DNA from: Nitrospirota bacterium
Lineage (GTDB): Bacteria > Nitrospirota > Nitrospiria > Nitrospirales > Nitrospiraceae
Direction of reading: 5' to 3'
Length of the DNA: 64,000 bases
Assembly (NCBI GenBank): GCA_963703955.1
Contig: CAVPGK010000011.1
Coordinates: 64,001 to 128,000, forward strand
This document shows positions 30,227 through 35,604 of the stretch, in pieces. Made by a program: the position numbers and the translations under genes. Position 1 is the stretch's first letter. Every line of letters begins with the position of its first letter. A model generated the notes under the pieces. The model had not been told where the DNA came from, ran no database searches, and worked only from the letters and a program-made list of their open reading frames with translations.

Positions 30227-30850
30227 ATGAACCCAGCAGATGACACCCAAGAAATGAGGGCAGGGACTCAAGGGCCTAAGGGGAGTTCGCCCCGCGAAGA
30301 CAAGAAGAATCCGACCATGCAAGCGGGGCCGGAAAATGCTGAGAGCCTTGACAAGGTAAGAGACATTCTCTTCGGATCTCAGTCTCGGGAATATGACAAA
30401 CGACTCTCCCGCCTTGAAGAAAGTCTCATCCAAAGATCGTCGGAACTGAAGAATGATTTGAAGGCGCGGTTTGAGTCTCTGGAATCCTATCTTGAGAAGG
30501 AGGTCGAATCGTTAACCAATCGAATAAAAGTTGAGCATGATGAACGGGCAGAGTCGGTTAAAGAGCTGATGCGAGAATTGAAGGATCTAAGCAAAATCGT
30601 TGAGAAGAAAGTAACTCAGCTCGATGACCAAGCTAATAAGGAACACCGTGAGTTACGTCAACGAATCTTGGATCAGCACAAGACCTTGTTCGATGAAATC
30701 CAACAGAAGAATGAGACATTAACACAGGCTCTTGGTCAGGCTGTTCAAGAACTCCGTGATGAAAAAGTGAATCGGACACTGCTCGCGGATCTATTAGTAA
30801 AATCTGCTATGTGCCTGAACGATGAACTAAAGATTGCCGGCAACAAATGA
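30227..30850 (+). CDS. Coiled-coil protein of the GTPase module
   Basis: LDKVRDILFGSQSREYDKRL N-terminal motif, long heptads, KVNRTLLADLL. Confidence 0.85.
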   Translation: MNPADDTQEMRAGTQGPKGSSPREDKKNPTMQAGPENAESLDKVRDILFGSQSREYDKRLSRLEESLIQRSSELKNDLKARFESLESYLEKEVESLTNRIKVEHDERAESVKELMRELKDLSKIVEKKVTQLDDQANKEHRELRQRILDQHKTLFDEIQQKNETLTQALGQAVQELRDEKVNRTLLADLLVKSAMCLNDELKIAGNK

Positions 30851-30985: not shown

Positions 30986-32800
30986 ATGTCTGATTCTTAC
31001 CGTGGGTCAGTTCCCCAAGAGTCCTCCACCACTCCGCAGCATGCCGAAAGAGATCTTGAGAATCTTCGCCGGTTGCTTCTGGCACCCGAGCAGGCCAAAT
31101 TGGGAAAGCTGGAGGAACGTCTGGAGAGATTACATATCGTAGATGCCAAGACAGTAGCCCAGGTATTGCCGGATGCAATTCGCCATCGGTCCAAGCAGGA
31201 TCAACATCTAGCTAGCTCCCTAGCGCCCATTATCGGTGACACCTTCGTTCGGGCCATTAAAGGCTCCCCTCAACTGATAGTCGATGCCATTTACCCCATC
31301 TTGGGGCCGGCGATCAGAAAGGCCATCATTACGGCCATTCAGGGGATGGTGCAGTCGCTCAACGAAACCCTCGAACACAGTTTGTCATGGCAAGGTTTGC
31401 AATGGCGACTTGAGGCCCGGCGCACTGGGAAATCCTTCGGCGAAGTGGTCTTGCTGCACACGCTCCAATTTCGGGTTGAGGAGGTATTTCTGATTCAGAG
31501 GGAAAGCGGCATCCTTCTGCGCCATCTCTACCATCCGAAGGTGCAGGCTCCTGCAGGCCGCGACGAAGATCATATAGCCAGCGTGTTCACCGCGATTAAG
31601 ACCGCCGTGCAGAAGTTTGTGGGCGATTCGTTCCGTGTTTCCAAAGAAGACACGTGGAAGTCCTTTGAGACACACGGAGGTCTGTTAGTGTGGGTCGAAC
31701 CTGGTCCAAAGGCAATTCTAGCTGGAGTCATCCGGGGAATACCCCCTGCACAATTACGGTCTGTATTCCAGGACGTTCTAGATACCATTCATGTCGAGAT
31801 GAATGAAGCCCTCCACAACTTTCGAGGTGATTCAAGTGCATTTGAAGCAGTTGATGACCACCTCACCAGGTGTCTGGAAGAAGGAAGGGCCAAGACTTCA
31901 GTGGGGTCACGCAGTATTTTATCCAAAACTTCTCCGGCTGTGTGGCTGGCCATGGCTGTTTTGTCTGGTCTCCTCGTCTGGGCGATTTTCGCCTATCTAG
32001 ATCATCTGCGTTGGAAGAACTTTTTTGAATTGGCCGGGAATGAGCCTGGCGTCGTTATTACGTCGGTACAGAAAGAGAACGGCAAATCTGTTGTCCGCGG
32101 GTTTCGGGATCCATTGTCCTCTCAGCCTGACAGCTTGGCCCAACAAGTTGGTCTCACACTTGACTCGCTTGTCTTCGAGCTTGAACCGTATCAGGCTCTT
32201 ACACCCGACATCATCAAGAAGCGAGCGATATCGGTTCTTCACCCTCCTGATTCCGTGACGATCTCTGTCCATCAGGAAAACAGTAAAACCACCTTGGTGG
32301 CGACAGGATCTGCTTCTCGTGAGTGGATCACGCGATTTCGGGAAATTGCTCTAGTTATTCCGGGAGTCGGTGAAATCAAAGAAAACGATTTGCACGATAA
32401 TAGCTTGATCGCGTTTGAAGAGATGAAGAGGGAAATTGAAGCGCATCAGTTTACATTCGAACAAGGAAGCTCGGCTCTTTCGTCGGAGACAAAGGAAGAG
32501 ATAGCCATTCTCTCAACGACCATTGGAAAGATCGATAGGTTGGCTCGAGAACTGGACAGACGGGTCCGGATTGAAGTCTATGGGCATACGAGCAAGGAAG
32601 GGTCTTTTGAACTCAACAGGCGTTTAGGTCTTGCGAGAGCTCAAACCCTATTTACTGCTCTTAATACCAAGGATCTCAAGATGACACAGATTCTTCCTTT
32701 AGGAGCGAGGTCAAGTCGCCCCTTGTTACCTGAGAAGAAGGATGAAACCCTATCGACGAATCGACGTGTTTCGCTGCATGTCATCGTGCAGACCCCATGA
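30986..32800 (+). CDS. Membrane protein: cytoplasmic helical + longin/roadblock-like domain, 1 TM, periplasmic OmpA-like C-terminus
   Basis: GAGGAG RBS; TM AVWLAMAVLSGLLVWAIFAYL; F.QGSS.L...EVYGHTS.EG...NRRLGLARA...NRRVSL. Confidence 0.85.
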   Translation: MSDSYRGSVPQESSTTPQHAERDLENLRRLLLAPEQAKLGKLEERLERLHIVDAKTVAQVLPDAIRHRSKQDQHLASSLAPIIGDTFVRAIKGSPQLIVDAIYPILGPAIRKAIITAIQGMVQSLNETLEHSLSWQGLQWRLEARRTGKSFGEVVLLHTLQFRVEEVFLIQRESGILLRHLYHPKVQAPAGRDEDHIASVFTAIKTAVQKFVGDSFRVSKEDTWKSFETHGGLLVWVEPGPKAILAGVIRGIPPAQLRSVFQDVLDTIHVEMNEALHNFRGDSSAFEAVDDHLTRCLEEGRAKTSVGSRSILSKTSPAVWLAMAVLSGLLVWAIFAYLDHLRWKNFFELAGNEPGVVITSVQKENGKSVVRGFRDPLSSQPDSLAQQVGLTLDSLVFELEPYQALTPDIIKKRAISVLHPPDSVTISVHQENSKTTLVATGSASREWITRFREIALVIPGVGEIKENDLHDNSLIAFEEMKREIEAHQFTFEQGSSALSSETKEEIAILSTTIGKIDRLARELDRRVRIEVYGHTSKEGSFELNRRLGLARAQTLFTALNTKDLKMTQILPLGARSSRPLLPEKKDETLSTNRRVSLHVIVQTP

Positions 32801-33459
32801 CTGGCCGATCGATGAACTCCACAGAAACTCAACGCAGTAAGAAGGTATGCATGCTAGGAGCCACGGCTGCTGGCAAGACGTCCCTTGTTAGGCAATATGT
32901 GTATGGAATGTTTGATAAAGAATACAAGACGACTATTGGAGTGAATGTAGAACGGATGGATGTAACTGTGGATGGTCAGGTAGTGAAGCTCACTATGTGG
33001 GACCTTGAGGGGTATGATGATCCTCTCGATGAATATAGAAAGGATTATATACCGGGTGCCCATGGGTATGTGTTAGTGGTAGATGGGACACGCCCAGAGA
33101 CATTGGATGTCGCAAGGAGCCTTCAGCAACTCGCGCAGGACATTCTTGTTGAAGCGGTGCCATTTGTCGTCGTTCTCAATAAGCGCGATTTGGAGGGGAG
33201 ATGGGCGTTGAGCCGAGGGATTTCGAACAAATTGTCTCAAGAAGGATGGACGGCGTACGAGACGAGTGCTAAGACGGGCAAGAATGTCCCCGAGGCCTTT
33301 CAGATTCTAGCCAGAAAAATGCTTGAGATAGATGAGATCAAGGAAAAAGGAGGAGGAGAAACGATGAGAGTCGAAGGGGATAAGAGCATTCAAACAACAA
33401 AGGAACCTGACTTTTCTGATCACGTCAGAGGGATTGGTGATGATATTCTTAGACGGTAG
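32797..33459 (+). CDS. Ras/Rab-like small GTPase
   Basis: G1 GATAAGKTS, G2 YKTTIGV, G3 WDLEG, G4 NKRD, G5 TSAK; ATGA overlap with upstream gene. Confidence 0.93.
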   Translation: MTGRSMNSTETQRSKKVCMLGATAAGKTSLVRQYVYGMFDKEYKTTIGVNVERMDVTVDGQVVKLTMWDLEGYDDPLDEYRKDYIPGAHGYVLVVDGTRPETLDVARSLQQLAQDILVEAVPFVVVLNKRDLEGRWALSRGISNKLSQEGWTAYETSAKTGKNVPEAFQILARKMLEIDEIKEKGGGETMRVEGDKSIQTTKEPDFSDHVRGIGDDILRR

Positions 33460-33641: not shown

Positions 33642-34460
33642 ATGAATAGCAGCATCTCATATCAGTTGTTCCCAGCCCTAGACACCCTGGTTTTTCGACG
33701 CTCCGAGGAGAACGCAGATTTTCAGCTTATGGGTTCTCCGCCGGATTGGGTTCACTCTCTTAAAGGCCAGCTTTCAGAGCGCTGGGATCCTTCTCAATTC
33801 TTGGAGCAATCTTGTTTTCTGCAGCACTTTTTACGGAGAGCCAAGAGATTTTGGGACGAGAATCAAAGCGGTCAATTGGAATCTGGTCCATGGGAGGAAC
33901 CGACGCTCAAGGGTGAAACATACGATCTAGAAGCGATGGCTCTTGCTATTGGGACGAACAAGGTTCTAGTGATTAGGAAACTAAGCCCGCAGATTCGTTC
34001 CCGTCTTCAAGAAGCCAGGGAAAAGAGTCTCCAGCTACAACGGCAGGGCCTTCTGGAAGAACGATTAAGGGAGAGTGAAAAAGCTCGGGATGATTTACTT
34101 GTTATTTTGGATCAACTGCAGGTGGGCGCATTTTTGACCGATACTAACGGACGGGTAACCTTCATGAATCAATGGGGGCGGCGCGCGTTAGGAAAAACAA
34201 CACTGGAGATCGTTGGTGGACAATGGGATCGAGTGGTTCCCGTCTCGAAAGACGGGCTTGAGGCCCTCATGTCTATGCTTCATCAGCCATCGGCAAGACG
34301 CCAGAGGGTTCCCATTCAATTTAGTCGACAAAATGGATCACGAGTTTTTCTGGAAATCGATGTTCAGGACGACCCTAGGAATTCGCGGCAGAAAATCTTC
34401 TTTCTCTATGATGTGACAGGAGTGCAGTACCTCCGCCGTCCATTGGCAGAACATCTATAG
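33642..34460 (+). CDS. N-terminal sensor-like domain + PAS domain protein without output domain
   Basis: ILDQLQVGAFLTDTNGRVTFMN...LG...EIVG...FLYDVT. Confidence 0.75.
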   Translation: MNSSISYQLFPALDTLVFRRSEENADFQLMGSPPDWVHSLKGQLSERWDPSQFLEQSCFLQHFLRRAKRFWDENQSGQLESGPWEEPTLKGETYDLEAMALAIGTNKVLVIRKLSPQIRSRLQEAREKSLQLQRQGLLEERLRESEKARDDLLVILDQLQVGAFLTDTNGRVTFMNQWGRRALGKTTLEIVGGQWDRVVPVSKDGLEALMSMLHQPSARRQRVPIQFSRQNGSRVFLEIDVQDDPRNSRQKIFFLYDVTGVQYLRRPLAEHL

Positions 34461-34465
34461 TCTTC

Positions 34466-35604
34466 TAGTGTAGTGCGTCATAAATAACTTGACGTATATG
34501 TCCAGACCTCTCTATCTTCTGGAGCATGAGAACCGCGGCCCCTATCCAGCTGTCCCCTATGGAGCGCTCGGCCCTGAGGACATGGGCCCAGGGTCGGCGT
34601 GTCCCCTTTCGCCTGGTGCAGCGAGCGCGGATCGTCCAGTTGGCGGCCGATGGCGTCAGCAATCAGGGAATCGCCCGAACATTGACCATCTCCAGACCCA
34701 CGGTGCAGCTTTGGCGGGAGCGGTTTCTGGCTCTGCGCTTGGCAGGGCTCGAAAAGGATGCGCCACGTCCCGGTCGTCTGCCACGCATCCCCGAACGCAA
34801 AGTGCGGGCCGTCGTCGAGGCGACACTGCACACGACCCCACCGGCTGCGACCCACTGGAGCACCAGGAGTATGGCGAAGGCCCAAGGCCTCAGCGAAGCG
34901 ACGGTGCGGCGGATCTGGAGGCGATACCACCTCAAGCCCCATCTCATCAGGACCTTCAAGCTCAGCCGGGACAAGCAGTTTGTCGAGAAGCTCTACGATG
35001 TCGTGGGGCTCTATCTCAATCCCCCGGACAAGTCCTTGGTCCTGTGCGTCGACGAGAAAAGTCAGGTCCAAGCCCTCGACCGCACCCAGCCGGGCCTTCC
35101 GTTGAAGAAGGGCCGTTGTGGCACGATGACGCACGATTACAAACGCCATGGCACGACCACCTTGTTCGCAGCCCTGAGCATGCTCGACGGCCAGGTGATC
35201 GGCGACTGCATGCCGCGGCATCGACATCAGGAGTTCATTCGCTTCCTCGCAAAGATCGAGGCCGAAACCCCGTCCGAGCTCGCGTTGCATCTGATCGTGG
35301 ACAATTACGGGACGCACAAGCACCCACGGGTGAAAGCTTGGCTCCGGCGGCATCCGCGGGTCCATCTGCACTTTATCCCAACCTCCAGTTCCTGGCTGAA
35401 CCTGGTCGAGCGCTGGTTCCGCGATCTCACCGACAAGCGCATCCGGCGGGGCAGCTTCCAGCATGTGCGGGAATTGATCGCTGCGATCACACAGTACCTG
35501 GACCATCACAATCAGAGCCCCCGGGTATTCGTGTGGACCGCCTCGGTGGGGAATATCTTGACCAAAGTCGCCCAATGTAAAGAAGCGTTAGACGCACTAC
35601 ACTA
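34466..35604 (+). mobile_element. IS630-family insertion sequence, complete
   Basis: 12-bp perfect TIRs GTGTAGTGCGTC (34468-34479)/GACGCACTACAC (35591-35602), TA duplication in CTAG context. Confidence 0.95.

Follow-up and report, generated by a model that had tools for sequence, protein, structure and literature searches.

We report that the membrane protein encoded next to a Ras/Rab-like GTPase (Rup) in a Nitrospirota bacterium contains a predicted longin domain, which, judging from comparative sequence analysis, likely serves as a membrane docking and activating site for that GTPase. The genes lie in a 64,000-nucleotide window, the whole stretch of DNA analyzed here (GCA_963703955.1, contig CAVPGK010000011.1, forward strand 64,001 to 128,000), and all positions are those of the window. 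The system is already known, its operon having been published since 2014 in a computational catalogue; the new part is the fold of the domain named DUFX. We found no longin assignment for DUFX in the literature searched on Rup systems and longins. The portions available of PMC4915359, PMC10936438, PMC13408092, and 10.1101/2020.10.19.343400 do not mention a bacterial Rup longin, and a Thiomargarita preprint notes the operon and, in its available part, gives no fold. The central features are:

30986..32800, + strand: single-pass membrane protein DUFX:OmpA, 604 aa
31472..31882, + strand: predicted longin domain, residues 163 to 299 (AlphaFold2 predicted local distance difference test score, 84.9; predicted template modeling score, 0.79)
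31565..31630, + strand: helix alpha1, residues 194 to 215, predicted to be the face for GTPase docking and dimerization, and extended by four residues in the divergent subtype described below
32797..33459, + strand: Rup (Ras/Rab-like) GTPase, 220 aa (PF00071, E = 8.6e-28)

The initial annotation had proposed a longin/roadblock-like fold for this region from five sequence motifs. All five are found in the 604-aa open reading frame at residues 164 to 269 (31475 to 31792), N-terminal of the hydrophobic segment, and the proposed element order (two strands, one helix, three strands, one helix) is that of the AlphaFold2 model. DSSP assigned strands in the model to residues 163 to 171, 177 to 182, 226 to 229, 233 to 239, and 243 to 250 and helices to residues 194 to 215, 255 to 277, and 284 to 299; the last helix, absent from the proposal, completes the longin pattern. 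Foldseek and VIA-align searches with the modeled domain returned longins as top matches, which bears out the longin half of the proposal. The best structural matches were the longins of Sec22b, VAMP7, and Ykt6, and whole-domain superposition on solved longins outranked other folds. A search with residues 22 to 300 found 3263 clusters (50% identity, E ≤ 0.001), so the domain is no chance feature. In the MglA/MglB systems of Myxococcus and Thermus, the roadblock is a circular permutation with an N-terminal helix, whereas the model has two helices after the sheet; the roadblock/LC7 (MglB) fold was rejected on this ground. The window domain further differs from MglB in being membrane anchored and in having a partner from the Rup/Rab branch. 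On the basis of the model, we predict that DUFX residues 163 to 299 form a longin domain and not a roadblock.

Profile evidence weighs against this assignment. No family member passed the Pfam longin or roadblock cutoffs. PF19036 (Fuz_longin_1) matched 3 of 81 members (best E = 0.0084), amid 29 mostly chance families, and exceeded its cutoff in 0 of 50 genomes, its best match falling on the longin domain in two. Identity to the longins of eukaryotic GEF platforms is 6 to 20%, with no sequence-profile match over the cutoff. Nor does the fold alone fix the function, because longin SNAREs and adaptor chains, neither of them known to regulate GTPases, are among the best matches.

We assign the locus to the Group 1 Rup systems from its neighborhood, its motifs, and the Table S2 row for Nitrospira defluvii NIDE0273 (Rup Group 1, Rup<DUFX:OmpA<DUFY, with no fourth gene in the row) in PMC4316618. 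In the available sections of that 2014 survey, Group 1 Rup are ranked closest to Rab/Ras/Rho/Ran among prokaryotic GTPases and called uncharacterized. Their neighborhood there combines a coiled-coil protein; a protein that has a DUF, then an inner-membrane helix, then OmpA; a GTPase that lacks the G3 Gln; and an output protein. The same sections give DUFX no fold, whereas here it holds the predicted longin. They also report that 0 of 121 Rup sequences were coupled to MglB, which left the regulator of Group 1 Rup open. The window contains the same four genes, including the invariant N-terminal Gln of the fourth protein, and its membrane protein has DUFX, then the membrane helix, then the OmpA domain. 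Unlike the published arrangement, the window copy is of a divergent subtype, with a fourth gene that encodes PAS and no output domain. The remaining parts of the system are:

30227..30850, + strand: 207-aa coiled-coil protein, corresponding to DUFY of Group 1 Rup
31931..31999, + strand: transmembrane helix, residues 316 to 338 (highest 19-residue hydropathy, 2.26; four K+R before, two after)
32453..32761, + strand: OmpA-family (peptidoglycan-binding type) domain, residues 490 to 592 (PF00691, 32.6 bits against a cutoff of 27.2, E = 1.1e-7)
33642..34460, + strand: fourth gene, 272 aa, a conserved N-terminal domain followed by PAS

The GTPase gene start overlaps the membrane-gene stop codon (32797 to 32800). 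Gene neighborhoods were counted in the 80 best of at least 491 related genome stretches. A coiled-coil homologue lay directly upstream of the membrane gene in 76 of the 80 loci. The GTPase was found somewhere in the locus in 73, in 67 of them directly downstream, and 56 loci contained a homologue of the fourth gene. The operon is rearranged in L037, L053, L061, L063, and L080, with the GTPase gene on the opposite strand, upstream or downstream. Among the matches listed, the closest named homologues of the window locus are from Nitrospira and Nitrospirales, which suggests a host from this order. At 220 aa, the Rup protein falls within the range of small Ras-type GTPases (150 to 240 aa) that lack the G3 Gln. 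G1, G3, G4, and G5 are present, with Tyr and no Gln after DxxG, and the Gln is likewise lacking in 64 of the 67 neighboring GTPases. The best solved relatives of the GTPase family profile are Rab23 and a Thorarchaeota Rab.

The initial annotation had placed a membrane-bound regulator just upstream of its Rab-like GTPase. Gene order and the membrane helix agree with this, and the partnership itself has indirect support from co-occurrence, from the conservation of alpha1, from its erosion in a genome without the GTPase, and from coupled change. Of 401 genomes from the phylum, an identical set of 52 contained domain and GTPase; in a second, overlapping set of 101 relatives, 14 had the domain, 14 the GTPase, and 13 both. 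Helix alpha1 is the most conserved element and carries small residues at i, i+1, i+4, and i+5. In Mon1-Ccz1 and TRAPP, according to the part of PMC5216073 available, alpha1 helices form the Rab-binding surface, and bulky residues at i and i+4 abolish exchange. One genome (G005, 99% complete) contains the coiled-coil and membrane genes (L100:2261-4676) and yielded no Rup match. Of the conserved positions, its alpha1 keeps 2 of 16 and the remainder of the domain 35 of 51; the worst-conserved windows span alpha1 into beta3, the transmembrane helix and C-terminal part are retained, and part of the N-terminal region is lost.

The coupled change is seen in the divergent subtype, which comprises seven paired loci (the window, L097, L098, and L163 to L166). 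Its alpha1 has a four-residue insertion, and Lys or Arg replaces a conserved Asp. In its GTPases, the basic patch that follows G2 is altered and switch II is longer by one or two residues. To propose a charge swap at the longin-GTPase interface would be speculation. Together with L167 and L168, the seven loci form one clade in both quick trees (FastTree, 0.96 and 0.87). Each of L163 to L168 is a second operon, its genome having a canonical GTPase as well, and alpha1 and the switch regions differ between the copies; this coexistence suggests insulated paralogous longin/GTPase pairs.

A number of observations count against the longin as the partner of Rup. The co-occurrence is operon inheritance among kin, and because it holds for the whole operon it singles out no part (longin, the conserved segment of residues 104 to 160, or coiled-coil protein). 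G081 shows a GTPase match and lacks the domain. G082 and G092 each contain an additional GTPase match, carrying a stop in G092, with no additional domain, and G425 has an intact GTPase beside a broken domain. The small residues of alpha1 could serve dimer packing alone. The erosion comes from one genome, G005, in which the N-terminal region is damaged too and whose operon may be a decaying relic. Alpha1 keeps 15 of 16 positions in L059, from a metagenome-assembled genome in which no Rup was found, and 14 of 16 in L070, where the only GTPase is a weaker match elsewhere. Since the divergent loci form one clade, the coupled alpha1/switch change is one event, and the coiled-coil protein of the subtype also deviates, at 3 of 21 conserved positions. 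Finally, a GTPase is missing nearby in 27 of 33 archaeal-type loci with at least 800 nt downstream, and these keep the alpha1 motif.

Some of these observations would fit a longin that makes no contact with the GTPase and whose role is to dimerize the membrane protein, or to bind either the coiled-coil protein or the helical stalk of its own chain, in the way that the longin of a SNARE folds back onto the SNARE helix. The Sec22b, VAMP7, and Ykt6 matches, the archaeal-type homologues that keep the motif mostly without a GTPase neighbor, and the intact alpha1 of L059 and L070 all point this way. We nevertheless regard it as very improbable: erosion in G005 is centered on alpha1 and beta3 even though the coiled-coil gene remains, and alpha1 and the switch regions change together in the divergent subtype.

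If the longin does contact Rup, the question is which step of the nucleotide cycle it serves. In the available parts of PMC4316618, the invariant N-terminal Gln of the output protein is proposed as the GTPase-activating protein (GAP) residue (Wuichet and Sogaard-Andersen 2014), and the fourth gene typically has an output domain, kinase or GGDEF/EAL. Across homologues of the window's fourth protein, Q123 is conserved in 53 of 56 and R126 in 54 of 56. PAS_9 exceeds its cutoff in the window protein, and the chain ends after PAS without an output domain. The homologue in L001 (594 aa, sigma-54-type output) matches the window only up to its residue 283. In L164:2225-3442 (-) and L166:2101-3348 (-), a single open frame encodes both the GTPase and the N-terminal domain known from the fourth protein. 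Elsewhere in the window's genome, another GTPase match, a weak one (E = 3.5e-5), falls within a 1009-aa frame (G000:C10:169421-169942).

The initial annotation had offered the longin as a GEF (guanine nucleotide exchange factor) or GAP. A GAP reading would make it an MglB-like GAP or GAP cofactor that binds Rup-GTP, alone or with the segment of residues 104 to 160 and its invariant R141, and switches the GTPase off at the membrane. This is unlikely on present evidence. The sole highly conserved Gln found is in the fourth protein, which two loci join to the GTPase in a fusion; no Gln of the longin is invariant; the GTPase resembles Rabs and not MglA; and longins, in the reviewed literature available in part, bind GTPases on alpha1 and work mostly with GEFs. 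Longins are moreover described as platforms rather than catalysts (Levine 2013, available in part), which, with the Gln conserved in the fourth protein, makes GAP activity by the longin alone the less likely half of the claim. The same descriptions favor a passive tether that would hold Rup at a peptidoglycan-anchored site with its nucleotide cycle unaltered: TRAPP exchange is reported to need the Bet3 tail, and alpha1 erosion, co-occurrence, and coupled change show contact at most, not catalysis. We think this rather doubtful, because the operon has no other conserved exchange-factor candidate except the coiled-coil protein, and the longin pair Mon1-Ccz1 catalyzes exchange unaided (PMC5216073, available part).

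We therefore favor a GEF-type site, because longins mostly act with GEFs and the missing Gln sits in a fourth protein fused to the GTPase in L164 and L166. It seems fairly probable that a cell-wall-anchored longin dimer forms a GEF-type docking site for Rup and that the fourth protein acts as its effector and donates the Gln. The periplasmic part, held on peptidoglycan, would relay the state of the envelope through the membrane helix. Two longins would pair via beta3 and alpha1, and the small-residue face of alpha1 would bind the switch regions of Rup and favor GDP release, so that the dimer would dock Rup at the inner face of the cytoplasmic membrane as an activating platform and not a catalytic GAP. 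Rup-GTP would then bind the N-terminal domain of the fourth protein, which would supply the missing Gln and have its output switched. That output would be a sigma-54-type activator in L001, or a kinase or cyclic di-GMP enzyme as listed in the available part of PMC4316618.

Through a shared motif, the coiled-coil protein may become part of the N-terminal stalk. The similarity of two N-terminal motifs had been noted in the initial annotation, which took it as a sign of co-assembly:

30347..30418, + strand: conserved N-terminal motif of the coiled-coil protein, residues 41 to 64 (R45 and G50 invariant in 73 sequences)
31055..31123, + strand: similar N-terminal motif of the membrane protein, residues 24 to 46

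Both motifs are conserved within their own families, and their 33-column profiles align in register with a score of 16.4 (31% probability). None of 100 column shuffles reached this score (maximum, 14.4), nor did any of 12 other coiled-coil windows (maximum, 12.4). Comparison of the whole profiles gave a probability of only 2.7%. The likeness stands above chance and is weak. A common origin of the motifs is plausible, and co-assembly of the two proteins through them is possible. Pfam matches to the coiled-coil protein were weak and of helical-bundle type, none over the cutoff.

The rest of the membrane protein fits a single-pass topology. Residues 316 to 338 are the single hydrophobic segment in the 604 aa; among 148 relatives, a hydrophobic segment lies within 70 aa C-terminal of the domain in 141 and N-terminal of it in none. 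The longin is preceded by the following segment:

31295..31465, + strand: conserved segment, residues 104 to 160 (W140 and R141 invariant)

W140 and R141 are present in 148 of 148 relatives and R111 in 145; E143 and R146 are also conserved, and conservation of the segment equals that of the longin. The periplasmic region between the helix and OmpA (32020 to 32425) had no Pfam match. It contains two similar short alpha/beta repeats, which we presume to be BON-like. Beyond the Rup system lies one further feature:

34465..35601, + strand: insertion sequence, starting 4 nt past the fourth-gene stop

We take this element, present in three copies in the genome, to be IS630-like. A contig of run X1 joins 34464 to 35602 and represents the empty site. 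Because the fourth-gene stop precedes the insertion sequence, loss of the output domain is independent of it.

A homologous domain was found in 47 metagenome loci (profile probability, 99.9%; E = 5.5e-31). These archaeal-type homologues form the C-terminal end of giant single-pass surface proteins and occur also in AAA/TPR proteins. L130:33-4764, for example, is a giant PKD/Ig surface protein with a C-terminal longin homologue, and in L121:207-3197 and L154:2137-4827 the domain lies inside the N-terminal part of AAA/STAND-type TPR proteins. Archaea-specific neighbors over the cutoff (isopentenyl phosphate kinase, aIF2-alpha) were found in 4 loci, with 53 open reading frames scanned. L120, L123, L124, L128, and L130 are near-identical, and in them a gene for a Rab-like GTPase whose G3 Gln is intact comes immediately after the domain, with a V4R (TRAPPC3-like) gene next in line. 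These five loci are probably archaeal, without an archaeal marker of their own. By sequence comparison, the L130-type operon carries the predicted folds of a minimal TRAPP core.

The eukaryotic longin GEF platforms TRAPP Bet5/Trs23, Mon1-Ccz1, and CPLANE are described as soluble heterodimers in larger complexes (PMC3747258 and PMC5216073, available parts), whereas the window protein, a predicted longin, is single-pass, cell-wall anchored, and presumably a homodimer. Prokaryotes were held to lack longin domains by Levine (2013), in the part available, and later work placed longins in Asgard archaea (PMC10933270; 10.1101/2020.10.19.343400; PDB 8yqg). The GTPase genes of MK-D1 lie generally outside longin operons according to the available part of PMC10933270, whereas the window pair is a fixed bacterial operon. 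With predicted longins attached to Rup in bacteria, the longin/Rab pair would lose some of its value as a mark of Asgard archaea and eukaryotes alone. Tentatively, and with less confidence than we place in the docking site, we suggest that bacteria may have a longin GEF that is anchored in the membrane, reads the cell wall, and serves a Rab-like GTPase, a homodimeric, single-gene equivalent of TRAPP and Mon1-Ccz1; that its divergent pairs may be insulated via alpha1 and the switches; and that an archaeal-type sister family may combine the domain with a Rab-like GTPase and V4R in one operon, a minimal TRAPP parts list. The predicted longin, paired with Rup in several bacterial phyla, offers a candidate for the regulator and a surface to mutate, and the cultured hosts of the pair, among the matches listed, include Nostoc, Anabaena, and Fischerella.
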